From a virus, in the IMG/VR virus record IMGVR_UViG_3300018954_000002, positions 1 to 63,693 of that record: a DNA stretch of 63,693 nt, one strand, 5' to 3'. Under the pieces are notes generated by a model that saw only the letters and a program-made list of their open reading frames with translations, had not been told where the DNA came from and did not search any database. Both the position numbers and the translations under genes were made by a program. Shown in pieces: positions 13,573 through 63,693 of this stretch (position 1 is its first letter; every line of letters starts with the position of its first letter).

Positions 13573-13802
13573 CACGCGCTCCGCTCGTGGTTCTCGACGT
13601 GCACGATCGCGGCCTGTACCGCGTCCTCGAACCCCCACCACTCGCGCTCCGGCTCGATGTCCGGCGGGCAGTGGGGGGACTCGGAGCACTCGATGCGGAG
13701 GGTGCCCTCGGCGGGGTCGACGTCGCGGACGTACACGACCGGGTCACCCGGGAGTGCCTCGCCACGTGCCGCGCGGTCGGTGGTGACGATGACGGTGGCC
13801 AT
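13572..13802 (-). CDS. Hypothetical protein (76 aa)
   Basis: ATG at 13802. Start-stop overlaps on both sides. Confidence 0.55.
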   Translation of the reverse strand: MATVIVTTDRAARGEALPGDPVVYVRDVDPAEGTLRIECSESPHCPPDIEPEREWWGFEDAVQAAIVHVENHERSA

Positions 13803-14302
13803 CAGTGCACCTGCCTCATCTGGTCGGACTCGGAGTCGAGGAGCTGGCCGACCGCCCACGAGCGGGCGAGGCGGTCGTAGATCCTGACCATCTCGGCGTA
13901 CGTCTTCATCGTCGAGCGCATGAGGGTCGTGTGGACGTTGGTCCACCCGAACTGCTGCCGGTTGAGCCACATGTCGCGCGCTGCACCGCGGTAGCCCTCG
14001 ACGGCCTTCGCGCGCTTCTCGGCGTACGGGTTGCCGAACTCGATCAGGGTCGCGATGCGCTGCTCGCGGGTCGGCTCGGGCGTGGTGGCTTCGAGGTAGG
14101 CCGACCATGCGTCGTGGTCGTAGGGGTCCTCGGGTGCGGAGACGTCGGTCAGGTTGGGCTCGCGGTGGGGGCCACGGTCGGCGGGGGCGTAGGGGTACGG
14201 GTCCTCTCCGCGAGCGAACTTGTCGAGCTCGGTCCGTAGTTCTGCGACGTAGGCGTCGTACTCCGGCGTTCCGACCGGGTAGCGCGGCTCCGGCTGCGTC
14301 AT
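13802..14302 (-). CDS. Hypothetical protein (166 aa)
   Basis: Clean protein-like ORF. Confidence 0.65.
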   Translation of the reverse strand: MTQPEPRYPVGTPEYDAYVAELRTELDKFARGEDPYPYAPADRGPHREPNLTDVSAPEDPYDHDAWSAYLEATTPEPTREQRIATLIEFGNPYAEKRAKAVEGYRGAARDMWLNRQQFGWTNVHTTLMRSTMKTYAEMVRIYDRLARSWAVGQLLDSESDQMRQVH

Positions 14303-14445
14303 CGCGCACCACCGGCGGTGAGCAGGAACAGCGGGCGCAGGTCGCGGGCGATGATCTGCACCGCCGCGACCTCGCTGCGGCGCATGCTGCGAACGCGGAC
14401 GGTGGAGTGCTGCCGGTCGGAGATCCTGCGGTTGCGGCGGGCCAT
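14299..14445 (-). CDS. Small basic protein (48 aa)
   Basis: MARRNRRISDRQHSTVRVRSMRRSEVAAVQIIARDL... ATGA-coupled downstream. Weak RBS. Confidence 0.4.
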   Translation of the reverse strand: MARRNRRISDRQHSTVRVRSMRRSEVAAVQIIARDLRPLFLLTAGGAR

Positions 14446-14450
14446 CGTGG

Positions 14451-14678
14451 TCACCGCCCGGCCAGTGCAGCGGCGTGGTCGTCGTCGAGTGTGGCGAAGC
14501 GCAGGGTCCCGTAGCTGACCTCGCCGGTCAGCTTGACGCCCTTCTCCACGCGCCCGTTCGGCCACAGGACGTCGCACACCGTCTTGCGCTGGCGGACGAT
14601 CTGACCGCGGACGACGAGGTCGTCCTGCGGGTCGGTCCACTCGGCTGCGACGTAGACGGGGAACTCTTTGCGGGCCAT
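14451..14678 (-). CDS. Hypothetical protein (75 aa)
   Basis: AAGGAG RBS before the ATG at 14678. First gene downstream of P3. Confidence 0.6.
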   Translation of the reverse strand: MARKEFPVYVAAEWTDPQDDLVVRGQIVRQRKTVCDVLWPNGRVEKGVKLTGEVSYGTLRFATLDDDHAAALAGR

Positions 14679-14718
14679 CTGGACCACTCCTTGGTGTCGT
14701 TCGTTCCTGACACCACCT

Positions 14719-14748
14719 ACGCTATATCCACACGTGGATAAGTGTCAA
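14719..14748 (-). promoter_or_regulatory. Promoter-operator cassette P3
   Basis: -35 TTGACA (14748-14743), 18 nt, -10 TAGCGT (14724-14719). Palindrome TATCCA-CACG-TGGATA at 14725-14740. Confidence 0.7.
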
Positions 14749-15008
14749 GAGTTCTGCGCCACGGAGTTTCCCGGCAGTCCCGCGATCCTGTATGCGTACG
14801 CCTGCACGCTGTCGACGTACACCCGCCGGTGCCCACGGAGCACTCGCCCGCGAACGTCCTCCGTCACCCGGTGCGCCCGGGTCCACGCGAACTCCAGCTC
14901 TCCCAGCGAACAGAGCGCGCGAATTTCGCGAAGCGAAACACCGAGCGTTTTCGCAGCCTGTCCCGTGGTCATCGTCTCGCGGTCGCCCCGCGTGGCTTCG
15001 CTTGTCAT
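14745..15008 (-). CDS. MerR/excisionase-type HTH DNA-binding protein
   Basis: MTTGQAAKTLGVSLREIRALCSLGEL. The start is ambiguous (ATG at 15008 or 14972). The stop lies inside the P3 -35 box. Confidence 0.6.
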   Translation of the reverse strand: MTSEATRGDRETMTTGQAAKTLGVSLREIRALCSLGELEFAWTRAHRVTEDVRGRVLRGHRRVYVDSVQAYAYRIAGLPGNSVAQNS

Positions 15009-15556
15009 GTGGTCAAAGTAGCAAGACGAACGAAAGTCTGCCATGCTGCGAACCATGACCCCGCTGACTTCGCTTCGTTCGCTTCGTTCGCTCCCGTTCG
15101 CTCTGGCTTCGCTGTTCGTCGTCGTGAGCGTCATCGCTGCGTTCGCATACGCGATCAACGCATGGCAGGTCTACGGCTTCGCTGCGAACGTGTGGCAGCT
15201 GCCGGCGGTCCTGTGCGTCTTCGCCGCGCTCGTCGCCGACGCTCTTTCGCTCGCCGGACTCTTCACCACGTACATCCTTCGCAGAGCGAAGCTGCACGTC
15301 CGCGCGTACGCATGGTTCGTCTTCCTCAGCATGACTTCGCTGTCCATCCTCGCGGCCGAGTCGTTCGCGAAGTGGCGTCAGCTCCCGCAAAGTTCGCGGG
15401 ATCTCTTCGCCAACGAACCCTCGCTCATCGAAGCGGACAGCGTCGCTGGCGGGGTTCTCGACGACGCGAACGTGGCCGCTGCCGTGATCGCCCCTGCGCT
15501 CGCTCTCGCGGTGCACCTGCTCATCATCTGCGTTCGCCACGCGGTTCCGGCTTCGC
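14887..15556. repeat. TTCGC/GCGAA-dense island 1
   Basis: About 29 copies counted by eye in about 670 bp. Background elsewhere is about 2-3 per kb. Includes the 9-bp tandem TTCGCTTCG at 15070-15095. Confidence 0.7.
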
Positions 15557-16047
15557 GGGACGGCGCGACCCCGGCGGGGCACCCTGACTTCATCGCCTGC
15601 CCGCTCTGCGGCGGCGACGCCATCTCGCCCACGGTGCTCGCGGAGCACATGGCCCGGCGGCACCCGGCTCCCTCCGTGGCCCAAGGGCCTCCCCGCGCCG
15701 TGCGTCCCGTCCGGACCGAGCAGGCACCGGAGCCCGACCGGCCTGTTCCGGTCGTGCGCGAGCAGGCCGAAAAGGTCCAGGTCATGCCCCCTGCGCCCCG
15801 GCGCGGAGGACGCCGGGGCGGAATCAGCGCAGTGAACAAGGCGAACGCTGTTGCCCGGGTCATCGCCAAGGAGATGACCGCAGCCGAGGTGGCCGCCCTG
15901 CTGGACTGCTCGACGCGCGCCGTCGAACAGTGGGTTAAGGCGTACCGCGAGCAGCAGGCGGGCCAGCCCCTCGCCGCGATGCGCACGTTGACCGACGGAT
16001 CCGGGCAGGTCAACGGCCACAAGCCGGAAGAGACGGTGAGCCTGTGA
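15043..16047 (+). CDS. DUF2637-like polytopic membrane protein with a C-terminal HTH
   Basis: Four hydrophobic helices in the N-terminal half, a CPLCGG Cys/His (zinc-finger-like) motif, and C-terminal MTAAEVAALLDCSTRAVEQWV. This gene type usually sits next to FtsK-like genes in actinomycete conjugative elements. Confidence 0.6.
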   Translation: MLRTMTPLTSLRSLRSLPFALASLFVVVSVIAAFAYAINAWQVYGFAANVWQLPAVLCVFAALVADALSLAGLFTTYILRRAKLHVRAYAWFVFLSMTSLSILAAESFAKWRQLPQSSRDLFANEPSLIEADSVAGGVLDDANVAAAVIAPALALAVHLLIICVRHAVPASRDGATPAGHPDFIACPLCGGDAISPTVLAEHMARRHPAPSVAQGPPRAVRPVRTEQAPEPDRPVPVVREQAEKVQVMPPAPRRGGRRGGISAVNKANAVARVIAKEMTAAEVAALLDCSTRAVEQWVKAYREQQAGQPLAAMRTLTDGSGQVNGHKPEETVSL

Positions 16048-16087
16048 GCACCCGCGAGGGCCCACGGATGCGCACGGTGAGTGATAT

Positions 16088-16287
16088 TGCAAGTGCAAGT
16101 GCCGCCGCGCCCTTTTCAGACGCGCCGGTACCTAGGGGGGGAGATGCAAAGGATCTTGCAAGCCGTCCGGTATGGACCGATTGCAAGGCGCGGTGCAAGT
16201 CCGGTTTGATCAGGTTGCAAGCCCCGCTGCAAGCCCTGCAAGTCACGCAGCGTAGGGATCCCGGACCTGCAAACGATCTACTGCAAG
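16088..16287 (+). repeat. Array of 11 TGCAAG/TGCAAA hexamers upstream of the traB-like gene
   Basis: Copies start at 16088, 16094, 16145, 16157, 16182, 16194, 16216, 16228, 16237, 16268 and 16282. Three pairs are 12 bp apart. Confidence 0.85.
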
Positions 16288-16303
16288 CGAGGGGGGCAGG
16301 GCC

Positions 16304-18505
16304 ATGGCGGTGAAGGCAGACGAGCGCCGCGAGCGCGAGCAGGGCGGCCACACCCGGCCGACCAGCAAGCGGCACGTCCCGTTCCTCGCGTCCTTCCTGG
16401 TCGCGTTCGTCGTCATCCCGGTCACGTTCGCGATCTCCCACGCCATCTACCTCTGGGACCCCGCGACCGGCCTCATGCTCGCGCACGGATGGTTCATCAC
16501 CGGCTGCACCGTCGCGTTGGTCGCCGTCGGGATCGGCCTGTTCCACGCCAAGCGCACCACGTTCCTGATCAAACACGTCGCGATCACCGTGTTCCTGTTC
16601 GGCGCGGCCGGCGACGTCATCACCCTCGCCGGATTCCGGCATCGCTTCCTCGACGTCGTGTGGTTCTTCGCGACCCTGATCGTGTGGCTGTCGTGGATGC
16701 TCTACCGCGTCGACGCCTTCCGTGCGAAGGCGACCGGCGAATCGAGCGACTCGTGGGGCGACGTCATCGGCCTTGCGAAGTCGCGGCCGAAGAAGGTTCG
16801 CACGACGCCCAGCGAAGTCATCATCGACGTCGAGCACGGCCCCGGCGAAACGATCGGCGACGTCCGCAACGCAGCGAAGGAACTGGAGGACAAGGCCGGT
16901 GCCATCGTCGGGCGAACGACCGTCATCGCGGGCGAACGTGGCGGGTCTTCGCAGATTCGCTTGACGATGGCGGACCCCTTCGACGAGTGGCGAAAGTTCC
17001 CCGGCCTTTCGCACCCCGGCGGTTCGTTCGCTCTGCCGTTTCGCACCGCGTACTACTCAACCGGCGACGACCAGTGGTTCGGTTTCGCTCGCGGCACCCT
17101 CGCTTCGCCGCTGACGAACTTCGTCGCGCCGCAGGCGACCTTCGTCGGCATCGTCGGCACCACCGGCGCAGGCAAGTCCGGCGAACAGAACAACATCGCC
17201 GCCGAGGGGCTTTCGCGGTGCGACGCGATCCTCTGCTGGGTCGACGCGGAGAAGCTGTTCCAGAACGCCGGGTGGTGCCTGGACATGCTCGGCATGGCGG
17301 CCCCGGACCGGCCGAAGGCGGCACGGCTTTCGCGGGCGCTCAAAAAGCTGGCCGAGCACCGGGTGCAGTTGTTCGGTCAGATGTCGCTCGACGCCGCCCT
17401 CGACCCCGACAACCCCGACGCCATCGGTGGCCGGGAGTGGACGCCGGAGGTCGCCCGGGAGACCGGGGAAGCCGCCGTGCTCGTCATCATGGACGAGGCC
17501 GACACGTTCCTGCAGAAAGGCGAATGGGACTGGCTCGGCAAGCGGGGCCGCTCCCTCGGGATCTTCCTGTGCCCGTCCGTGCCCCGGGCGTCGACACAAG
17601 AGGTGCCGGCGGCCTTCCGCGGCAGCATCGCCGCGTGGAAGACGTTCGCGATCGGCGACAAGTACAGCGGCGAGTTCACCCTGTCGCAGTCGACCCGCGA
17701 CGCCGGGGCGGACCCGGAGTCGCTGCGCATGCCGGGCGGCCACTGGTTCGACCTCGCGCCCGGCGTCGACCCCCGGCTGTGGCCGCTGCTCTGCCGATCG
17801 TTCTGGTCGGACGGCCGGATGCTGCGACAGATGGTCCTCGCCGCCCGCCAGCGGTTCACGCCGATGGACTTCACCGACGCGGCGAAGGCCGCGATGGGGC
17901 AGGACTACGAGGTGTGCACCCCCGCCGCGGTGATGGCTGTACGCGCGCCCGAGGTGCGCAACGAAGGCGACGGGGCCGCCGCGCCGGCGGACCCGCAGAC
18001 GACGCAGGAGACTCCCGGACCCGCCGGACCTGCCGACAGCAGAGGAGGAGATGACGTGGACACCGAGCCCGTCGAACGCACAGAAGAGGGCGCCCGCGCC
18101 CCGGAGGGGGATGATGGCGTCGTCGCCACTCTCTCTCACCCGGGCCTGCCGGGCGCCGCCGAGTCCGACCCCCGCGCGCCGATCGAGCGCGGCACCACGG
18201 GAGTCGAGGTGCCGGAGGACAAGCCGCCCGCCCCATCGAGAGAACAGGAAGACGCCGACCTCGACCACGCCCTGGTGAAGCTGTACCAGGACGACGTGTC
18301 CGAGTTCACCCCGGAGGACGTCGCCGATCGGCAGCAGTACGCGATGCAGCCGTGGACGATGTCGCGCCGGCTCGGTGCCCTCGCGGCGTCCGAGACGATC
18401 AAACCGCCCGGCCTCAAGGTCGAGCGACTCCGCGCCGGGCGGTACCTGTTGGTCCGCGTCGGCCCGTCCCCCCGCCCCACCAACGTCCCGCGAAAGGGTG
18501 AGTAG
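16304..18505 (+). CDS. traB: FtsK/SpoIIIE-family DNA translocase, TraB-like
   Basis: N-terminal TM helices, Walker A GTTGAGKS, Walker B VLVIMDEAD, an acidic linker and a C-terminal winged-helix-like tail. 733 aa. Confidence 0.85.
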   Translation: MAVKADERREREQGGHTRPTSKRHVPFLASFLVAFVVIPVTFAISHAIYLWDPATGLMLAHGWFITGCTVALVAVGIGLFHAKRTTFLIKHVAITVFLFGAAGDVITLAGFRHRFLDVVWFFATLIVWLSWMLYRVDAFRAKATGESSDSWGDVIGLAKSRPKKVRTTPSEVIIDVEHGPGETIGDVRNAAKELEDKAGAIVGRTTVIAGERGGSSQIRLTMADPFDEWRKFPGLSHPGGSFALPFRTAYYSTGDDQWFGFARGTLASPLTNFVAPQATFVGIVGTTGAGKSGEQNNIAAEGLSRCDAILCWVDAEKLFQNAGWCLDMLGMAAPDRPKAARLSRALKKLAEHRVQLFGQMSLDAALDPDNPDAIGGREWTPEVARETGEAAVLVIMDEADTFLQKGEWDWLGKRGRSLGIFLCPSVPRASTQEVPAAFRGSIAAWKTFAIGDKYSGEFTLSQSTRDAGADPESLRMPGGHWFDLAPGVDPRLWPLLCRSFWSDGRMLRQMVLAARQRFTPMDFTDAAKAAMGQDYEVCTPAAVMAVRAPEVRNEGDGAAAPADPQTTQETPGPAGPADSRGGDDVDTEPVERTEEGARAPEGDDGVVATLSHPGLPGAAESDPRAPIERGTTGVEVPEDKPPAPSREQEDADLDHALVKLYQDDVSEFTPEDVADRQQYAMQPWTMSRRLGALAASETIKPPGLKVERLRAGRYLLVRVGPSPRPTNVPRKGE
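16724..17333. repeat. TTCGC/GCGAA-dense island 2 (inside traB)
   Basis: About 20 copies by eye. GCGAA dominates from 16724 to 16932 (8 of 9). TTCGC dominates from 16948 to 17329 (9 of 11). Confidence 0.65.
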
Positions 18506-18508
18506 CCG

Positions 18509-18889
18509 ATGCCGCAGATGCCCCCGGCCAATCAGTCGACCAAGTACAACGAAGAGATCGAGGCGCTCGGCGTCGCCGTCCGCGCTGCGGCGATCGCCGG
18601 CCACGACTTCCTGTCCCCACTCGCCGCGTCGCTGTCTCGGCGCCTGGCGAAGGGTCTGCGTTCCGAGGGGCTGGACGGCGGCAACTTCGCCTCTCGGTTC
18701 CTGCGCGGCGGGGACGCCGCCCGGACCGCGATGTGGATCACCGAGCCGATGCGGGCCGCCGCGGCGGACCTCTACAACTGCTCCGTGAACATGACCACCT
18801 TCGTCCGGCGGTTCCGGGTCGGCTACGTCGACGCGATCATCCAGGCACGGAACACGGCGAAGGACGACGACATCGTCGTCGTCCGCTAA
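18509..18889 (+). CDS. Hypothetical protein (126 aa)
   Basis: Starts 4 nt after the traB stop. Protein-like composition. Confidence 0.6.
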   Translation: MPQMPPANQSTKYNEEIEALGVAVRAAAIAGHDFLSPLAASLSRRLAKGLRSEGLDGGNFASRFLRGGDAARTAMWITEPMRAAAADLYNCSVNMTTFVRRFRVGYVDAIIQARNTAKDDDIVVVR

Positions 18890-18915
18890 CGGCAGACGAG
18901 GCAGGAGGACCGGCG

Positions 18916-19311
18916 GTGTTCAACAGTCAGGCGCGGACCGAGCGCAGGAAGCGGGACCGCGAGCAACAGCGGTGGGCGGCGAACAAGCGCGTCGGCCACG
19001 ACCTCGCGTACTGGATCCTGTACGGGGGGCAGATGCTGGCCGCCGTTGGCCTCGCCCTGCTGGCCTTCGCAGCGGTATGGGTGTGGGTCTCCGTCGACCG
19101 CATCCTCATCGCGGAGACGCTCGGCGCCGTGGGGATCCTGATCCTCGCCGTGTATGCCGCGTGGTGGGCCCGGCGAGCGACCCCGCAGTCCCGCGTACTC
19201 GCTCGCGCCGCAGGCATGGCCAACAACGCGCTGGTCTGGCATCTCGTCGGAGCCGCCGGCCTCCTGCTCGTCGTGGCCGGCGTGCTGCTCTGGCAGCAGG
19301 TCGCGGCGTGA
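18916..19311 (+). CDS. Spd-like polytopic membrane protein (131 aa)
   Basis: GGAGGA RBS, 6 nt, GTG at 18916. Three or four hydrophobic helices. Confidence 0.6.
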   Translation: MFNSQARTERRKRDREQQRWAANKRVGHDLAYWILYGGQMLAAVGLALLAFAAVWVWVSVDRILIAETLGAVGILILAVYAAWWARRATPQSRVLARAAGMANNALVWHLVGAAGLLLVVAGVLLWQQVAA

Positions 19312-19544
19312 GCGGCGAGCGCCGCCGGGTGGAGGTCGTGGTCGTCCGCGGCCTTGCCCGGCTGCTCGCCGCCGGGACGGCACTGACCGCCCTCGGCGCG
19401 CTGGCCTTGGTCGGCTGCATGTGGTCGTGGGCCCGGGACGCGGGTGCCGACCCGTCCGTGCTGTGGATGCTCGGCGGGATCGCCGCCGTCCTGTTCGTCG
19501 GAGGGATGTTCTCCGTGGTGGCGTTCGAGTGGGCGCGGGCATGA
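19308..19544 (+). CDS. Small membrane protein, 2 TM helices (78 aa)
   Basis: GTGA overlap at 19308. Confidence 0.55.
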   Translation: MSGERRRVEVVVVRGLARLLAAGTALTALGALALVGCMWSWARDAGADPSVLWMLGGIAAVLFVGGMFSVVAFEWARA

Positions 19545-19990
19545 TCGCCGGGTCGCTCGTCCTGGCCGCGATCGCCCTGCTCGTGCTCGCGCTCCGGCTC
19601 GCCCGCCGCCGCGAACCGTCGCCGGGTCGGCAGGTGACGATCCAGCGCCGCGCCACACCGGCACCTCCGAAGCGACAGCCGCCGCGGCGCGACATCCCGC
19701 ACGCGCTCTACGTCTGCCCGCACCAGTTCGGCGGCGTCGTCTACGTCGGCATCTCGCACGAGCCGGAAGCGCGGCACGAGCGACGGATGGCTGAGTTCAG
19801 GCGCGGCAACCCCCGGGTCGCGTGGGTCGCCGACTCCACCGGCCGGATGCAGATCATTCGGTGGTACCCGGATCGGTCCGCCGCGCTTGCGGCCGAGGAC
19901 GCCCTGATCAAACGTCTCGCCCTGGAGGGACACCCGGTCGCCAACGTCCAGGGCAACCCGCTACGAAGGAGGACTCGTCGTGCTGCGTGA
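19541..19990 (+). CDS. Membrane-anchored GIY-YIG-like nuclease domain protein (149 aa)
   Basis: ATGA overlap. N-terminal TM helix MIAGSLVLAAIALLVLAL, then ALYVCPHQFGGVVYVGISHEPEARHERR...AAEDALIKRL...N. Confidence 0.5.
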   Translation: MIAGSLVLAAIALLVLALRLARRREPSPGRQVTIQRRATPAPPKRQPPRRDIPHALYVCPHQFGGVVYVGISHEPEARHERRMAEFRRGNPRVAWVADSTGRMQIIRWYPDRSAALAAEDALIKRLALEGHPVANVQGNPLRRRTRRAA

Positions 19991-39200: not shown

Positions 39201-40979
39201 TTACTTCTCTGCGGCTAGTTGCGCCTCGATGAGCGCAATGCTACGGCCCCGAGGCTGCTCAGGGGTAGCGGTGATGTTCTTGGACCGCTCGACGATCGCG
39301 CGGGCGACGTCCGGGTCGGTGCGTTCGCGCATGGCCAGCGCGTCCGGTGTGCCGAGCGAGGACGCCTCGATCCGACGGGCGATCCGCCGCTGCATCGGGT
39401 CCGGGGCCGCGCCGCGGCCGGCGTACCGGTAGCCGTAGCGGGTGATGTCGTGCGTCCGGGCCATCCGCTCGTCGAGATCACGGTCGCCGGTCGCCGGGGT
39501 GCGGTCGTGGCGCGTCTCCACCCGGTCGGCGAGACCGAGGTCGACGGCCTCCTTGCCGATGGCCCACGTCTCCGCGCGCATGAGGTCCATCCACTCGGCC
39601 GGGTCGCCCCCGGCCCGCCGGGCGTACAGGTCGGCGATGTTCTCCGACTGACGGCGCAAGAAGGTGACCATCCGGTCGTGGTCCATGTCGTCGCCGTCGG
39701 TCGTCGCCGACGCGCAGTGAATCATCATCTGTGTGCCCGGCATCATCACGACCTCGTCACCCGCCATGGCGATCACCGACGCCGCGCTCGCCGCGTACCC
39801 GTCGATGTACGACGTCACGCGGGCCGGGTGGTGCAGCAAGGACGAGTGGATCGCCAAGGCGTCGAACACGCTGCCGCCCGGCGAGTTGATCCGAAGGGTG
39901 ATGTTCGGGGCCGTGATCTCCTCCAGCGCCATCGCGAACGATTTGGCGTTGGTGCCGAACGACCCGCCGATCTCGTCGTAGATGAAAATCGTTGCCGTCG
40001 CGCTGTCGCCCTGCGCCGCCTTGCCGTCCCGGGCGTCGTCGTACTCCTCGCCGTCCGCGTTGCGGATGGCAAACCACGGCAGTTTCACGTTCTGGATCGT
40101 GGACACCGTGCGCTCGGTCTGCTCGCCCGCGAAGAACCGGCGGTACCGGTCCGCGGTCCGGTCGATGCGCGCCCGCAGTCGGGCGGCGAGATCCGAGCCG
40201 GACGCCGACCGCCCGGCGACCTCGATACGCTCCCGCCGTGCGCTGGTCGGCGCCTCGCCGCGGCGCTGCAACCGCTCGGCCGCCGCGCGCAACGCACCTT
40301 GCGGCAGGTGGTCGATGTCGTTGAGCACCTCGGCCGTACGGGCGGCGATGTCGGTGTACGGGTTCGCGCCGTAGTTCACCGCCGACACGTCGCCGCGGTC
40401 GATGTCCCACTCGATGATCTCGAACTCGGTCCAATCCTCCGACCACAGCCCCTTACCCTCGGGGATCATGAAGGCGTAGGACATCTGGTCGATGTTGCCG
40501 TCGTCCATGGCAATTAGCATGTCGGCCACGTCGCGGCGCTTCGGGTTGACCCATGCGTCATGCCACGCGCCGGTGTCCTCCTCGCGCAGTTCGAGCGTCG
40601 GCTGCCGGGTCCCGTTCGTCGCCGTCCGGGCCATCGTCACCCCGGCGTGGTTGATGAGGAACGCCACGTCGGGATCCGACGCCAGCGAGCGAGCACCCGA
40701 CCCGGTCCGCACCCGCTCGGCGTACTCGCCGAACACGTCCCACATCGGATACGACCGGTTGTAGACCGTGAAGTAGCCGAAGGTGTGCACCATGTCGATG
40801 CCGTTGCGCTTCTCGGGCTTCGCCCGGATCTGCGTCTTCGTCGGCACTCGCCGGGCCGCGCCGATCCCCGGCACGGCCGACCGGTACGCCCGGAACGCGG
40901 CGTCACCCCCGCGCTCCCCATGCTGCTCCGCGGCCTGCCGCCGCAGCGCGGCGGCTGCGCGTCGTTCGCTCGCCGACAT
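39201..40979 (-). CDS. Prohead protease fusion: HK97-type S78 domain plus ClpP-like S14 domain
   Basis: N-terminal FGYFTVYN...FLINH...MSYAF...GANP. Central IFIYDEIGG...INSPGGSV...GYAASAASVIAMAG...MIHCAS. One continuous 592-aa frame. Confidence 0.75.
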   Translation of the reverse strand: MSASERRAAAALRRQAAEQHGERGGDAAFRAYRSAVPGIGAARRVPTKTQIRAKPEKRNGIDMVHTFGYFTVYNRSYPMWDVFGEYAERVRTGSGARSLASDPDVAFLINHAGVTMARTATNGTRQPTLELREEDTGAWHDAWVNPKRRDVADMLIAMDDGNIDQMSYAFMIPEGKGLWSEDWTEFEIIEWDIDRGDVSAVNYGANPYTDIAARTAEVLNDIDHLPQGALRAAAERLQRRGEAPTSARRERIEVAGRSASGSDLAARLRARIDRTADRYRRFFAGEQTERTVSTIQNVKLPWFAIRNADGEEYDDARDGKAAQGDSATATIFIYDEIGGSFGTNAKSFAMALEEITAPNITLRINSPGGSVFDALAIHSSLLHHPARVTSYIDGYAASAASVIAMAGDEVVMMPGTQMMIHCASATTDGDDMDHDRMVTFLRRQSENIADLYARRAGGDPAEWMDLMRAETWAIGKEAVDLGLADRVETRHDRTPATGDRDLDERMARTHDITRYGYRYAGRGAAPDPMQRRIARRIEASSLGTPDALAMRERTDPDVARAIVERSKNITATPEQPRGRSIALIEAQLAAEK

Positions 40980-40986
40980 GTCTCGC

Positions 40987-42231
40987 CTACCTCTCATCCG
41001 CGCCGGGGCCGGGCAGGTTGCCGAGCTCGCCGGGGTCGCTGTCGCTGGCCGCGCCCTTCGGCGGGCCGTAGATCTTCTCGAACTCGTCGATCTGCGCGTC
41101 GGTCAGCGCAGGCAGGTTCTCCAGGGCGCGAGCCTCGGTGTTGGTCAGCAGGCGCGAGTCGATGCGGGACTTGAGCACCTTCTGTCGGGTCGCCGGGTCC
41201 ATCCGCAGCAGGGCGTCGGTGTTCATCTTCACGTACCGCGGCGTCGGCAACAGGCGCGACAGGGCCCGCTCGCGGCGCTTCACTGAGGGGCCCATGTGGT
41301 AGATCAAGAACTGCAGGTTGCGCTCGGTGATGTTGGCGTACGTGATGCTGCCGCCCGAGCTGGCCTGCACGTCCACGAGGTCGGCCGGCGTGTCGAAGAA
41401 TCGGCAGATGTCCGCGCCGGCCAACTTCCGGCCGTCGATGAACTCCTGCCCCGCCTGCTCGGCTTGGATGACTTTGTACTCCCAGTCCGCGCCGGTGACG
41501 AGCAGATCGCCGTTGGCCACCGTGTCGGCCCACCACTGCTTGACCTGAGGCGTGTCCTCGCCGTTGAGCCGCTTCGCGGTGTTGCGCATCATCGCCTTGG
41601 GCACGCCGCCGCCACCGAACCAATCCAGGCCATACTGCTGCATGTTCAGCGCCTCGCCGATCGACAGCGCCGCGTACAGCACCGTCGGGAGGCCGACCTT
41701 GAGTCCGGGTACCACGTTGGCCCGCTCGTGGTAGACGTCCTCCGGGTCGTATTCCTCCTTGCCGATCCGCCACCGCGGAGCCTCGCCGGGTCGGGCGATG
41801 TACGCGCACGTCGACGCCTGCACCAGTTCGATCCGGGTCGGGATCCCCTTCTTGTGGTACTTCGAGGGCAGGGTGGAGCGCTCGACGATCAGGCCCACGG
41901 CGTTGCCGGAGCGGCGCAGGTCCACCTCGGTCATGGCGAGGAAGTCGACGATGTCGAGCTCCGTGCCGCCGGGGTCGGTGAGGATGGCGGGCTTCATCGG
42001 CAGTTCGGTCTGCATGCCGAGCAGGTCGCGGTACTGGTCGACGGGGAAGGTGGACATCAGGCCGGCGTGCAGGCGGATGCATGCCCAGACGACGGAGTTC
42101 CGCATCGCCTTGTCGTCGGTGACGACCACCTTCCCGACCTGCCGGGTACCGCCGCCTGCCCGACCGGGGATCAGATCCTCGGCCCCGGTGATGCCCCAGA
42201 ACGCCCGCGCCTGCCGACCGAACAGCCCCAT
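40987..42231 (-). CDS. Portal protein (HK97 family)
   Basis: 414 aa, downstream of the terminase. Confidence 0.85.
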   Translation of the reverse strand: MGLFGRQARAFWGITGAEDLIPGRAGGGTRQVGKVVVTDDKAMRNSVVWACIRLHAGLMSTFPVDQYRDLLGMQTELPMKPAILTDPGGTELDIVDFLAMTEVDLRRSGNAVGLIVERSTLPSKYHKKGIPTRIELVQASTCAYIARPGEAPRWRIGKEEYDPEDVYHERANVVPGLKVGLPTVLYAALSIGEALNMQQYGLDWFGGGGVPKAMMRNTAKRLNGEDTPQVKQWWADTVANGDLLVTGADWEYKVIQAEQAGQEFIDGRKLAGADICRFFDTPADLVDVQASSGGSITYANITERNLQFLIYHMGPSVKRRERALSRLLPTPRYVKMNTDALLRMDPATRQKVLKSRIDSRLLTNTEARALENLPALTDAQIDEFEKIYGPPKGAASDSDPGELGNLPGPGADER

Positions 42232-53801: not shown

Positions 53802-54146
53802 GCCCCTCGGAATGCCGCCGGGAAACCACTCGCGGGACGCCGGCCGCCGCGCGCTGGCACGTGCGCCGCGGGACTGATTGCACAACCGGTCGCACACCGG
53901 GCACGGATTCGGTGGCTCGCCGGGACCCATCGTGCCGTGCGCCGGGCGCAGGTTCGAGAGATCGTCCACACCCGGGATCAGTCGGCCCGCCACGTCGCGC
54001 GGCCACAGCCGGTGCGGGACGATGTGGTCCGCCGTCCGGGCGCCGTGGTGCCCGCAGATGCCGCAGATGTCGTTCGAGGCTAGTAGAAGGGCCCGATTCC
54101 GCCGGTACGGGCGGCTACCGGTGCCGGAGCGCCCCGATCCGGTCAC
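53799..54146 (-). CDS. HNH endonuclease (115 aa)
   Basis: GTGA overlap with the fibre gene stop. CGICGHHGARTADHIVPHRLWP...NLRPAHG...CPVCDRLCN. Confidence 0.7.
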   Translation of the reverse strand: MTGSGRSGTGSRPYRRNRALLLASNDICGICGHHGARTADHIVPHRLWPRDVAGRLIPGVDDLSNLRPAHGTMGPGEPPNPCPVCDRLCNQSRGARASARRPASREWFPGGIPRG

Positions 54147-57100
54147 TCGACCGACGAGTAGCGCAGTGAGCCGGAGGGTTCGGCGTACGCCACCGATGTC
54201 CGGCCCGGCTCGACCGTCGACCGGGCCACGGTCACCGAGTCGGCCACCACGAAGTCGACCACGCCGGTGAGCATCTCGGCCGACGCGAGCAGGGTCACGA
54301 CCGCGGCCAACGCCGCGCCGGTGCTGCGCATCTGCGCTCCGCCCGCGGACAGGGACACCGTGACGGTCAGGACGGTGGAGATGGGGGCGGATCTGCCGGT
54401 CGTGGTCGTGAACGTGGCCGAAATCGCCAGCACGGCACCTGCGGCAGGCCCGCGTGTCGCCGCGGCAGACAGCGAGACGGTGATGGCGAGCGTGGCCGTG
54501 GCCAGCACGGGCGGCGTGTCCGTGGTCGCGTCGGCCGCGAGCACCGCGGTGGCCGCGAGAGACGCGGCGGCGAACAGGGACTCCACGGCGGCGGCGGCCA
54601 CCGTCGCGGTCACCAGCAAGGCGGCCGCCGCGGCGCGTTGCGGCGTGACCGCGGCGGACAGCGTGGCGACGGCGGCGAGCGCGGCACTGGCCACCTGAGC
54701 CAGCGTTGCGGCCGTCGTCAGGGTCGCGGTGACGTTCAGGGCGGCGATCGCAGGCGAATCGCCGAGCACGGCGCCTGCCGAGAGCGCCGCAGTGGCCGAC
54801 AGCGCCGCATCCACCGGAGCGGACCTGCCGCCCGTGGCCGCCAGGGTGGCGGCCACGGCGAGGGACGCCTGCGCGGACAGCGTCCCGACCGCCGCAGCCG
54901 CGAGCGTCGCCGTGGCCGCGAGAGACGCGACGGCCGTCCTCGACACCGGAGCGGTCGCGGACAGCGTGACCGTCACCGGCAGGACGCCGGCCAGCGGGCG
55001 GGAGACGGGCGTGGCGGTCGCCAGGGTGGCCGTGACGGGCAGAACCGCCGCAGCAGACCGGGCGGCCGGCGCCGTGGACGCGAATGTGGCCGTCACCGGC
55101 AGAGCGGCGTCCGCCGTGTCGGTGACGGTGGCCGCAGTGGACAGGGTCGCCGTGACGGCAAGGGCGGGTCCGGCCACCGCGGTCCGGTCGGCGGCTGCCG
55201 AGAAGGTCGCCGTCGCTGCCAGCGCCGCCGAGGACGTGGCGGGGGTGGAGACGTCCGCGGCGGCTTCGAAGGTCGCTTCGACGGCGAGGTCGGTGGCGAA
55301 CGTCATCGGGATCAGGCTGGCACCGGCCGCCAGGGTCGCGGTGACGGCGAGGCTGGCGACGGCCGACTCGACGATCGCCGTGCCGAACGACAGGGGCATC
55401 TGCACCCGTACGATGCCGTCGTCGGTGGTGATTCCCTGGTACGTGACGCTGATTGTGGTGCCGTCGTCGGCGAAGTCGAGCCAGCCGTACGCCCTGAGGA
55501 CCGCCGGGTAGGTGTCGTACGTGCCGAACGAGTAAGTGATGCTGCTCATGTCGAGAGAACCCTGCTGGAACGGGGCGCCGCACGCCTGCGGGATGCCGAC
55601 GGCGCCGGGTGTCGACCCGTCGTCGGCGGCCAGGGCGTGGGTGTCGCCGAAGATCACGAAGACCTTCCCGGCGACGCCGGCCGTGTTGTTGATGAAGTTG
55701 GTCATCTCCTGGAATTCCGTGGCGAACGACGACCAGCGGTCGCCCGACGTGCCGCCCTCGGTGCGCCACGCCATGTTCCCGCAGATGACTTTGAGCGGCT
55801 CGGTCTCCTGCAGCCGCGCCTTGAGCCACGCTTTCTGTTCGACGCCCAACATCGATTTCGACGACGAGTCCGGGTCCAGATAGTTGTTGCGCTGGCTGCG
55901 CGGGTCGATCTGAATGAACCGGACCCGGCCGATCACCCAGGTCTGCCACGCCCCCCGACCGTCGGTGGCCGGCAGGTTGTAGTGCGGAATCACGTTGCGG
56001 TACGCCGCGGCGACGTCGGCGCCCCTGACGTTGTTCTTGTCGCTGCCGTTTCCTCCCCAGTCGTGGTTATCCCACATGTACGTTATGGGGATTTCCGACA
56101 ACATCGGGGCGAACAGCGGTTGATCCAGGGTCTGGAACCACTGGTCGTAGACGCCTTGCAGGGTGTCGCTGGCCCCCCAGTCCTCGTAGTGGATGTCGCC
56201 CATGTGGATCAGGCGCCGAGCCTTGCCGGAGCCGGCCGCGACGCTGCCTGTCTTCTGCCTGATCGCCTCGAACGTATTCGTCGAGAGCACGGTGAACTGA
56301 CACGACCCGAAGGCCACCGAGAAGTTCGCCGCCGTACCGGGCGTGGGGTCGGTGGTGAACGACCCGAACCCCTCGCTGTTGATCGTCCCGTCGGCCTCGA
56401 CGCCGTAGTAGTACAACGTGTTCGGGCTGAGGCCGGTGACGGACAGCTTCGCGAGGCCCTGCGTGCCGGCCGCGACCGCCGTGCCGAACACCGGCGAGGT
56501 CAGCAGGTCCGCCGTGGTGCTCACCTTGAGCCGGGCGGTGCTCGTCAGGCCGGAGAAGGCGTACGTCACCGTGCAGCCGCTCGACGACACGTTGCCGCAC
56601 ACGGGGCCGAGAACCACCTGTGGCGGCGGGTTGCTGGTCTGCCCGTACGGCACCAGCTCGAAGATGAACCACACCGCGGTCGACGAGCTGACCGCGCCGG
56701 AGCCGTTGGTGAGCGAGACCGGCAGCTGCCGAACCAGGCCATTACTGTCGTGGATCGAGGTGGACGGGTTGATGCCCGTCGGGGCGGTTCCGGGCTTCGC
56801 CGCCGCCCTCGTGGTGTATCCGGTGGGCGGATTCCAGGTCGATCCGGACCGGTCGCCGAAACTGACCCCGATCCACGGCAGTGTCGAGCCGGGGGTGATC
56901 GTGGACGTGGTGTGCAGCGCGGTCGACGCGCCGGACTCCCACCCCGAGGCGTACGACCCGACCGGGGTCGTCTCCGAGCACCCGGCGTAGGCCATGGCGG
57001 CGAGCGCCCACTCCACCGCCGATGAGCAGGTGAACGTCAACGCCGTGGCGTCGCCGGTGCGCCAGATGCGCCACAGCCACGCCGCGCGGTGGTCGTTCGG

Positions 57101-57445
57101 CGAGCCGGTGTCCGAGATCGGGCCGACCTGCGTCCACGTGCCCTGATTCGGGGTGATCGTGGCGGCGCTGATACCCCCGGCGTGCGCGTCCACGGTGATC
57201 GCCACCATGACGAGGTCGCCGTCCTGCGGCGCGATGGTCAGCGTGGGGGAGGTGAGCGCCGTGGCGTCGGAGACGGTGGCCGCGGTCCACCCGGCGGGCT
57301 GCCGGACGAAGATGGGCGAGCGGACCGCGACGATCTGCGAGGGCACCGGGTACGGGACGGCCGCCTCGCCGTACCCGAGCGTCGTCCACCGGTTTGACTG
57401 GCCGACGTACGGACTGGCCGCGCCACCGCTCTGGTAGATCGGCAC
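54143..57445 (-). CDS. 1100-aa tail-fibre-like protein with a PhoD-like metallophosphoesterase domain and 18 C-terminal repeats of 20 aa
   Basis: VTGLSPNTLYYYGV (PhoD_N-like), FGSCQ, HMGDIHYEDW, WDNHDWGGN, FGDTHA. The C-terminal 366 aa have a 20-residue period around (L/A)xVTATL. Confidence 0.75.
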   Translation of the reverse strand: MPIYQSGGAASPYVGQSNRWTTLGYGEAAVPYPVPSQIVAVRSPIFVRQPAGWTAATVSDATALTSPTLTIAPQDGDLVMVAITVDAHAGGISAATITPNQGTWTQVGPISDTGSPNDHRAAWLWRIWRTGDATALTFTCSSAVEWALAAMAYAGCSETTPVGSYASGWESGASTALHTTSTITPGSTLPWIGVSFGDRSGSTWNPPTGYTTRAAAKPGTAPTGINPSTSIHDSNGLVRQLPVSLTNGSGAVSSSTAVWFIFELVPYGQTSNPPPQVVLGPVCGNVSSSGCTVTYAFSGLTSTARLKVSTTADLLTSPVFGTAVAAGTQGLAKLSVTGLSPNTLYYYGVEADGTINSEGFGSFTTDPTPGTAANFSVAFGSCQFTVLSTNTFEAIRQKTGSVAAGSGKARRLIHMGDIHYEDWGASDTLQGVYDQWFQTLDQPLFAPMLSEIPITYMWDNHDWGGNGSDKNNVRGADVAAAYRNVIPHYNLPATDGRGAWQTWVIGRVRFIQIDPRSQRNNYLDPDSSSKSMLGVEQKAWLKARLQETEPLKVICGNMAWRTEGGTSGDRWSSFATEFQEMTNFINNTAGVAGKVFVIFGDTHALAADDGSTPGAVGIPQACGAPFQQGSLDMSSITYSFGTYDTYPAVLRAYGWLDFADDGTTISVTYQGITTDDGIVRVQMPLSFGTAIVESAVASLAVTATLAAGASLIPMTFATDLAVEATFEAAADVSTPATSSAALAATATFSAAADRTAVAGPALAVTATLSTAATVTDTADAALPVTATFASTAPAARSAAAVLPVTATLATATPVSRPLAGVLPVTVTLSATAPVSRTAVASLAATATLAAAAVGTLSAQASLAVAATLAATGGRSAPVDAALSATAALSAGAVLGDSPAIAALNVTATLTTAATLAQVASAALAAVATLSAAVTPQRAAAAALLVTATVAAAAVESLFAAASLAATAVLAADATTDTPPVLATATLAITVSLSAAATRGPAAGAVLAISATFTTTTGRSAPISTVLTVTVSLSAGGAQMRSTGAALAAVVTLLASAEMLTGVVDFVVADSVTVARSTVEPGRTSVAYAEPSGSLRYSSVE

Positions 57446-63538: not shown

Positions 63539-63693
63539 GAGGACGACGCGGGGGTTCCCTCCCGCTCCTCGATCCAGACCTCTTCGTCCGGATACATCTC
63601 CTCGGCCATGTACCGCGTGTCCGGGCACATCTCCGCGCCCCGGTGGTTGACTCCCTCGAAGTGCGTGCTCGCGGCCCACTCCGGATGCCGCTC
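63535..63693 (-). CDS. 3' part of the junction-spanning CDS (same gene as 1..163)
   Basis: The frame is continuous from the ATG at 163 through the 127-bp overlap to the TGA at 63537-63535. Confidence 0.6.
   Translation of the reverse strand, partial: ERHPEWAASTHFEGVNHRGAEMCPDTRYMAEEMYPDEEVWIEEREGTPASSS
63567..63693. repeat. Terminal overlap identical to 1..127
   Basis: Exact repeat, read directly from the sequence. Confidence 0.95.

Follow-up and report, generated by a model that had tools for sequence, protein, structure and literature searches.

A one-way TGCAAR repeat array beside a TraB-like translocase gene in a tailed-phage genome: a candidate clt-like locus

The window analyzed here, that is, the whole stretch of 63,693 nucleotides of the virus record IMGVR_UViG_3300018954_000002, is the complete genome of a tailed phage whose host is high in GC, and not a plasmid, a point that had escaped the initial annotation of this DNA. 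Positions 1-127 are identical to positions 63567-63693, pointing to a circularly closing genome of approximately 63,566 bp. Its structural and lysis genes code for a large terminase, a portal, a major head protein, a tail tube protein, a GH25 lysin and a prohead protease fused to a ClpP-like domain (598 aa, Peptidase_S78 type; 39201-40997, minus strand); an 1100-aa protein from the same region (54143-57445, minus strand) contains a PhoD-like phosphatase domain. The DNA-metabolism genes comprise those for a β-clamp, an ERF recombinase, a RuvC-like resolvase, an N6/N4 methylase and a primase/polymerase, with the clamp, ERF, RuvC-like and primase/polymerase genes lying at 0.6-8.7 kb and 61-63 kb. 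Among the approximately 80 ORFs scanned we recognized no integrase, ParA/ParB, or Rep-type or other replication initiator, and the PADLOC defence-system models returned no matches.

The locus of interest is the 256-bp gap between a stop codon at 16047 and the ATG of a traB-like gene at 16304, in which an array of short repeats had been reported. This array (array B; 16088-16287, plus strand) consists of 11 TGCAAR sites in a single orientation, which we regard as putative TraB recognition sites of a clt-like kind. Both the size of the gap and the reported counts hold on recounting: there are nine copies of TGCAAG (starting at 16088, 16094, 16157, 16182, 16194, 16216, 16228, 16237 and 16282) and two of TGCAAA (starting at 16145 and 16268), every one of them on the plus strand. 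The three pairs said to be spaced by 12 bp (16145/16157, 16182/16194 and 16216/16228) are likewise real, and the pairs sit within a 34-bp tandem duplication (16165-16198 and 16199-16232). A palindromic extension of the sites was also proposed, of which less survives: CTTGCAAG occurs in only one copy (16155-16162) and the shorter TTGCAA in four. The suggested consensus YTGCAAGYC stands in part, with a pyrimidine at -1 in 8 of 11 copies and at +7 in 9 of 11, and with S rather than C at +8; the flanks are thus only roughly kept and the core of the site is 5-6 bp.

The word is not over-represented in the genome as a whole, where a count, proposed as a check in the initial annotation, gives 17 occurrences of TGCAAG against 12 expected; 10 of these 17 matches fall within array B (nine on the plus strand and one on the minus strand). 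No comparable density exists elsewhere, since outside the array TGCAAR is found just seven times on both strands of 63.4 kb. The Poisson expectation for TGCAAR is 0.011 per 200 bp and the probability of at least 11 is about 7e-30, and dinucleotide shuffles of the gap itself contain on average 0.25 and at most 4 TGCAAR. With 11 such words per 200 bp, array B is a cluster of short words of the kind that characterizes clt loci (words of 5-9 bp over a stretch of about 50-250 bp). A coding repeat was ruled out, because the motif is found in all three frames of a spurious ORF of low GC3 (16044-16313, an out-of-frame relic) and is therefore a repeat at the DNA level. An enrichment of GATC (Dam) sites in the array was similarly dismissed, as GATC is common across the genome (7.25 per kb). 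The gap has a GC content of 64% against a background of 70% and is devoid of an AT-rich stretch.

As had been pointed out, the motif differs from the TraB recognition sequence (TRS) word of the plasmid pSVH1, GACCCGGA, of which array B holds no copy; given that TRS words are plasmid-specific, this absence is compatible with clt membership. In the window as a whole, GACCCGGA is present at 21 sites against 6.8 expected, and these are dispersed (e.g. 5556, 17711, 26913, 36630, 43315 and 62546). They lie mostly on the plus strand at 5.5-32.8 kb and mostly on the minus strand at 36.6-62.5 kb (19 of 21 fit this pattern; permutation p approximately 0.009), a polar distribution that could be either an artefact of codon usage or a KOPS-like guide.

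Several other blocks can be distinguished within the gap. Its 5' part (16048-16114, plus strand), which includes the first two TGCAAG copies, contains a recombination junction and an out-of-frame relic of the tail of an upstream gene (RTVSD..ASAS) of the type found in a relative designated L001. In L001 and three further relatives (L026, L027 and L028) the upstream gene extends past the first copies of TGCAAG and terminates at the TAA of CCCTAAGGG; its counterpart in the window ends at 16047 with a different C-terminus (..VNGHKPEETVSL, followed by the stop), of the type seen in a more distant relative, L018. As the L001-type tail is out of frame in the window, the conservation of the sequence there is at the level of DNA. 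Near this junction ACGGTGAG is duplicated, at 16033 and 16074. Downstream of the relic is a central block, TTCAGACGCGCCGGTACCTAGGG (16115-16137, plus strand), which is invariant in the close relatives; its family consensus, GACGC-N6-10-CCTWWAGG, is recognizable in L014, L015, L018, L022, L023, L031 and L033, whatever their repeat word, and it may be a bend or a site for an accessory factor. It is followed by the two tandem 34-bp units mentioned above (16165-16232, plus strand; 76% identity), with the structure GTCCGGTWTG-N6-TTGCAAG-N6-TGCAA; these constitute the higher-order repeat behind the 12-bp pairs and are also present in L001 and L026-L028. Adjoining the last sites of array B is a conserved 3' block, TCACGCAGCGTAGGGA (16243-16258, plus strand), which appears as TGCAAGTCACGCAGCGTAGGGA in the window versus TGGAAGTCACGCTACGTAGGGA in L018, with related TCAC..CCGTA blocks in L001, L015, L022 and L023. 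This block may be a promoter or 5'-UTR element of whichever gene comes after the array. A reading of the region as an ECF-sigma promoter with -35 and -10 elements (TGCAAC-N17-CGTA) was dropped, for its spacing fits the window only and its position is not conserved in the alignment.

The gene 3' of the gap (16304-18505, plus strand) encodes a 733-aa TraB-like dsDNA translocase, for which we predict transmembrane helices, an FtsK-type motor and, beyond a disordered linker, a winged helix at the C-terminus. It matches the plasmid TraB profile NF041214 with E=1.8e-45 over profile positions 4-623 of 639 and scores 155.6 bits against a curated cut-off of 800; judged by this profile, it is a distant TraB homologue and not an equivalog. 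Pfam returned no match for the protein. It is about 25% identical to TraBs of Streptomyces and Amycolatopsis plasmids, and possesses Walker A and B motifs of the form GTTGAGKS and VLVIMDEAD. An AlphaFold2 model (pLDDT 81) displays four N-terminal transmembrane helices (residues 25-144), a RecA-type motor and a linker leading to a C-terminal domain (pLDDT approximately 90) made up of helices 646-662, 670-676 and 683-696 and strands 704-710 and 713-718, in which the third helix (683-696, ..TMSRRLGALAAS) is the putative recognition helix. In Foldseek searches the motor recovered that of FtsK (6t8o; E=7e-16, TM-score 0.63-0.65); the isolated C-terminal domain model gave weak matches to generic wHTH folds (best 3b73; probability 0.96, E=0.12), and FtsK gamma was absent from its top structural matches. 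The model thus endows the protein with the two parts expected of a TraB, an N-terminal membrane anchor and a C-terminal winged helix.

An FtsK-like motor next to a repeat array can also be read as part of a centromere-like segregation system, in which the interaction of TraB with its sites would partition or clear the phage DNA across septa in the manner of FtsK/SpoIIIE, acting in hyphal compartmentalization or sporulation rather than in cell-to-cell transfer. Arrays of short direct repeats beside partition genes are typical of plasmid centromeres, and the closure of the genome by the 127-bp terminal overlap is compatible with a circular episome. We consider this rather improbable: the approximately 80 ORFs scanned include no gene for ParA, ParB or a replication initiator, nothing supports a plasmid-prophage state, and the best family match of the protein is to a TraB of plasmid transfer. 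It differs from the reading of the array as a clt-like cluster of TraB sites in biological role only.

The traB-like gene is flanked by genes of unequal ancestry. Immediately after it is gene X (18509-18889, plus strand), whose 126-aa product has no known domain and in which we recognized no DNA-binding domain; it is the third member of what we term the array-traB-X cassette. Its closest relatives are those of L001 and L027, as for TraB, and homologues of it follow the array in L022 and L015 (E=3e-8 and 2e-7). On the other side of the array is the gene for a 334-aa DUF2637-HTH membrane protein (15043-16047, plus strand), which combines transmembrane helices with a CPLC..H..H motif resembling a zinc ribbon and, at its C-terminus, an HTH_23 domain (E=2e-6), and whose L022 homologue matches DUF2637 with E=1e-8. 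A sequence search of the PDB with this protein gave no matches, and it displays no similarity to the plasmid TraA proteins. The gene is a conserved upstream partner of traB that belongs to another mosaic module. Divergently oriented to it is a gene for an 87-aa excisionase/MerR-like HTH_17 protein (14745-15008, minus strand; PF12728, E=3e-5; phrog_2907 excisionase, E=8e-4), which is L022/L018-like and has no match in L001. At the thresholds given, the HTH_23 domain and, weakly, this HTH_17/excisionase-like protein are the only matches to DNA-binding domains among the ORFs scanned around traB. Between the HTH_17 gene and the minus-strand gene 14451-14687 there is a near-perfect palindrome, TATCCAC-AC-GTGGATA (14725-14740), a candidate operator or terminator.

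Array A (14997-15285, plus strand), a second and separate site array, contains about 10-14 TTCGC(T) words in several reading frames; it extends over the divergent promoter and into the 5' end of the DUF2637-HTH gene. Its equivalents in relatives are made up of CTTCGC (19 copies; L018, 2018-2265), GACGCAACG (9-11 copies; L001, 1951-2450) and TGCGCA (11-12 copies; L003, 2477-2710, and L004, 2928-3176). The word of array A follows the lineage of the DUF2637-HTH gene and, in part, the HTH_23 helix, TTCGC being common to the window and L018. Judged from this sequence covariation, array A is probably the site array of the DUF2637-HTH protein itself, or else of the HTH_17 protein.

Searches for relatives recovered 45 homologues, all metagenomic and several of them on contigs of 62-64 kb. 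GenBank phages yielded neither a relative at the DNA level nor a TraB match, PLSDB plasmids no DNA-level relative and only TraB matches of about 25% identity, and GTDB genomes no close relatives. A close clade (L001, L026, L027 and L028), whose TraBs are 62-67% identical to that of the window, has 9-10 one-way copies of TGCAA[G/A/C] in the gap. In an alignment of five phages of this clade the spacers vary but the TGCAA blocks do not, which amounts to a phylogenetic footprint; GATCTTGCAAGC and the central block CTTCAGACGCCCCCGTnCCCTAAGGG are also invariant. In intermediate relatives (TraB 42-57% identical) the word drifts to TGAAAC, to TGAAAG or to mixtures of TGCAAT and TGCAATTGCA. In a distant clade (TraB 33-37% identical, together with L024, L031 and L033) no gap separates traB from the upstream gene, and a homologous element, retaining the central and 3' blocks, is found 3' of traB. 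Here the words are TGGAAG (14 copies in L018), TGAACA (6 in L024), GGAAAG (about 7 in L022) and TGCAAC with TGAAA (L014 and L015). The array is thus 5' of traB in the window, L001-L013, L019 and L026-L028, and 3' of it in L014, L015, L018, L022-L024, L031 and L033, so that it adjoins traB, as clt loci do, in the window and in all relatives with arrays; one locus, L032 (P0043), has no clear array beside traB. Because the gene after the array in the distant clade is homologous to X, the gene order (HTH gene, traB, X) is the same in both clades and the array alone changes side. Between phages all the copies switch their word together (TGCAAG, TGAAAC, TGAAAG, TGGAAG, TGAACA), and the word is accordingly element-specific and differs between related elements, again as in clt loci.

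Two observations on individual relatives deserve mention. In L031 (3414-3579) and L033 (3922-4116), the most distant of the relatives, the copies are inverted around a central CCTWWAGGTCAG (CGTTTCA with TGAAACG, and TTTTTC with TGAAAAA, respectively), a hint that the nucleoprotein complex may be bent or looped instead of forming a plain one-way track. In L003 (3616-3972) and L026 (490-915), which represent two separate lineages, a T5orf172/MUG113-type gene is placed between the array and traB, suggesting a mobile, homing-type gene aimed at this spot.

The relatives also bear on the possibility that the repeats act in RNA, where UGCAAG copies in the traB leader would bind an RNA-binding protein or fold so as to control translation. 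In its favor, all copies are on the transcribed strand between two co-oriented genes. Nevertheless, we regard it as highly improbable, as Rfam yields no match, the covariation term of RNAalifold is positive (i.e. no covariation) with only trivial TGCA self-pairs, and the palindromic TGCAATTGCA pairs and inverted copies in L008, L009, L015, L031 and L033 point to recognition of double-stranded DNA.

A stronger contender, which we nonetheless hold to be unlikely, is an operator or promoter array, coated by a phage transcription factor (possibly TraB or X) that controls the following gene, namely traB in the window and gene X in the distant clade, and that has no role in translocation. Without exception the element occupies an intergenic gap, at the end of which stand the conserved TCACGC..CGTAGG block, a ribosome-binding site and a start codon, and every copy points along transcription. 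Moreover, array A lies over the divergent promoter just upstream, so that this group of phages may build its regulatory regions from such arrays. Control of plasmid traB genes by repressors is known (PMC4170104), and the initial annotation had offered a Kor/TraR operator as one of two alternatives, the other being a clt-type array. Yet 9-14 one-way copies over 200 bp would be unusual for an operator, and a consensus scan found neither a sigma-70-like promoter nor a terminator. The gene regulated would vary between the clades, and it is the adjacency to traB that is constant; furthermore, the T5orf172 insertions of L003 and L026 part the array from traB, and the array is kept. The Kor/TraR version in particular is disfavored: no GntR/Kor-type repressor gene was recognized among the ORFs scanned around traB, and the location of the distant-clade element 3' of traB, before the next gene, makes a dedicated Kor-type operator of traB unlikely. 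Of the two alternatives, then, the clt-type array is favored by its resemblance in form to published clt loci, its conserved adjacency to traB, the concerted change of word and the co-inheritance of the cassette, and the Kor/TraR operator is weakened.

The mosaic structure of the window helps in identifying the protein that reads the array. The region 13802-19990 consists of an L001-like cassette (array B, traB and X) set in an L018/L022-like backbone, which supplies the HTH_17 gene, p166 and the DUF2637-HTH gene on the left and p278 on the right. The DUF2637-HTH protein of the window is 51% identical to that of L018, whose TraB is 38% identical, and 35% identical to that of L001, whose TraB is 69% identical. 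The junction is at about 16047-16075, with the relic tail left behind, and no leftover L018-type TGGAAG array was found in the window. As every copy changes in concert, a co-evolving, element-encoded reader is implied; and as the window uses TGCAAG in a backbone like that of L018, whose word is TGGAAG, this reader ought to be encoded within the array-traB-X cassette. On these comparisons it should be TraB or the 126-aa protein X, the latter being the alternative candidate reader of array B. Two other candidate binders had been named in the initial annotation, and both are disfavored. One is the HTH tail of the 15043-16047 protein, which belongs to an L018-like module and whose helix does not track the motif, the HTH_23 helix RTAQLWV being identical in TGCAAG-type and TGAAAC-type phages. 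The other is the HTH protein of 14745-15008, likewise part of an L018-like module whose closest relative uses TGGAAG. Among loci with clear arrays, all those whose TraB helix 3 carries S/T-R-R-L/F have TG[C/A]AA sites, and the two loci in which the first Arg is substituted have G-containing words, namely SERF with TGGAAG in L018 and SKRF with GGAAAG in L022. Helix 3 reads ..TMSRRLGAL.. in the window and ..RCSERFRAL.. in L018. Array A tracking the DUF2637-HTH lineage and array B tracking traB would amount to a double dissociation, one drawn from few lineages and confounded by linkage.

These comparisons also count against an origin of replication of the iteron type, to which a phage initiator would bind, an idea that derives some appeal from the direct repeats, including the 34-bp tandem unit, from the conserved central block, from the local drop in GC (64% against 70%) and from the fact that no origin was identified elsewhere. 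Its standing is nevertheless very low: the gap lacks an AT-rich stretch for unwinding, it is bordered by the genes for the HTH membrane protein and TraB and not by an initiator gene, the replication genes are at 0.6-8.7 kb and 61-63 kb, and the array stays coupled to traB at the mosaic junction and sits on different sides of traB in the two clades.

Taken together, the comparisons lead us to favor, by a modest degree of confidence, the interpretation that array B is a clt-like cluster of TraB recognition sites, possibly with a regulatory function as well. It is supported by the confidently modelled C-terminal winged helix of TraB, as opposed to X, which lacks a recognizable DNA-binding domain. 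Both the binding of TraB to array B and any function in transfer are deduced from sequence and structural models. Under this proposal TraB would be anchored in the membrane by its four N-terminal helices, and six TraB winged-helix domains would dock on the one-way TGCAAR sites, perhaps aided by a factor at the central GACGC..CCTAGG block. The TraB hexamer would then assemble on the phage DNA and might pump the dsDNA genome through a septum or into a neighboring cell in the style of Streptomyces plasmids. The invariable position of the element directly ahead of a start codon makes it probable that it contains a promoter or leader for the next gene as well, so that binding of TraB could feed back on expression. 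Such a docking site suggests that the phage DNA could be moved without virions.

Certain features sit less easily with a clt-like array. The covariation comes from few, non-independent lineages, and adjacency alone could explain the co-inheritance of array and traB. The core of 5-6 bp is shorter than the 8-bp TRS, and the winged helix matches generic wHTH folds only (E approximately 0.1). The SRRL core of the helix is common to TGCAA-type and TGAAA-type phages and leaves the C/A difference unaccounted for. L032 is without a clear array and the inverted copies of L031 and L033 are ill-suited to one-way loading. That a gene start invariably marks the end of the element is also compatible with a purely regulatory role, and no plasmid-maintenance or integration genes were recognized among the approximately 80 ORFs scanned.

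A broader scenario, which we put forward as tentative and on balance doubtful, is that a family of tailed phages of about 60-80 kb, known from metagenomes only and infecting high-GC actinomycete hosts, carries a portable cassette of array, TraB pump and X, in which word and reader co-evolve and which recombines between backbones. This cassette would pump the phage genome as naked dsDNA across hyphal cross-walls or into neighboring cells, a virion-independent means of spread borrowed from Streptomyces conjugation. If the array is indeed a loading site for TraB, conjugation-type translocation would extend beyond plasmids, AICEs and rare plasmid-phages to ordinary-looking tailed phages, with a bearing on how phages spread within multicellular, mycelial hosts. 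The phages would also offer a natural series of pairs of winged helix and word (TGCAAG, TGAAAC, TGGAAG, GGAAAG, TGAACA), rendering a TraB/FtsK-gamma-like specificity code directly testable, with array A, whose word follows the DUF2637-HTH lineage, as an internal control at the same locus. The 256-bp fragment and traB would likewise constitute a compact, orthogonal mobilization module for actinomycete genetics.

Among known systems, the Kor/TraR type of control (KorA of pIJ101, TraR of pSN22) resembles the phage locus in having repeated sites upstream of traB. It differs in that the scanned phage ORFs include no GntR-type gene, the distant-clade array is 3' of traB and the number of copies is much higher. 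In FtsK-KOPS and SpoIIIE-SRS an FtsK-type motor reads a short oriented word through its C-terminal winged helix for directional loading, and the words are dispersed and skewed over the whole chromosome. The phage TraB-like protein shares the motor fold (the match to 6t8o); in contrast, TGCAAG is clustered at one locus and not over-represented elsewhere, which is not the distribution of a polar guide.

A combination of phage and tra genes has precedents in pZL12 and pFP4, which the accessible parts of the literature describe as plasmid-phages of Streptomyces with phage structural genes and a TraB-type transfer gene (PMC4170104, PMC3583192, PMC4487206, PMC7157519), both being 85-90 kb plasmids and pZL12 having ParA and ParB (PMC4487206). 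Within the accessible literature, no clt-type array is described for either. The replication locus of pZL12 was reportedly characterized by Zhong et al. in 2010 (cited in PMC4487206 and PMC7157519). Such plasmid genes of pZL12 (ParA, ParB, replication locus) have no counterpart among the ORFs scanned in the 63.6-kb phage.

The closest parallel is with the clt/TRS loci of conjugative plasmids. As far as the published accounts were accessible, these loci span 50-175 bp beside a tra gene and are composed of element-specific direct repeats of 5-9 bp: G(C/A)AAC in three copies in pIJ101, a 9-bp repeat in nine copies in pJV1, TGACACC in four copies, footprinted by TraA, in pWTY27, and the 8-bp TRS of pSVH1, read by helix α3 of the TraB winged helix; where tested, TraB or TraA binds through its C-terminal winged helix (PMC3583192, PMC4170104). 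Clusters of 5-7 CTGACA(C) words flanking traB in pCQ3 (L029; 5566-5707 and 3480-3520) and in an Amycolatopsis plasmid (L030; 5520-5655) resemble the pWTY27 repeats, and by this analogy are likely to be unannotated clt loci. The clt region of pIJ101 includes TTGCAAC, GCAAC, GAAAC and AGGTCAGA, which resemble the TG(C/A)AA(C/G) words and the central block of the phages, with an unrelated recognition helix in pIJ101. Like these loci, the phage element occupies 50-260 bp beside a tra gene and is dense in copies of a short repeat that is specific to the element and for the most part keeps one orientation, and it is presumably paired with an FtsK-like translocase, anchored in the membrane and bearing a winged helix at its C-terminus, as predicted for the phage protein. 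The phage system is distinguished by its tailed-phage replicon, a shorter core (5-6 against 7-9 bp), more numerous copies (11-14) and a conserved central block outside the repeats; its array is 5' of traB in the clade of the window and, in the distant clade, 3' of traB, which is the usual position of clt.
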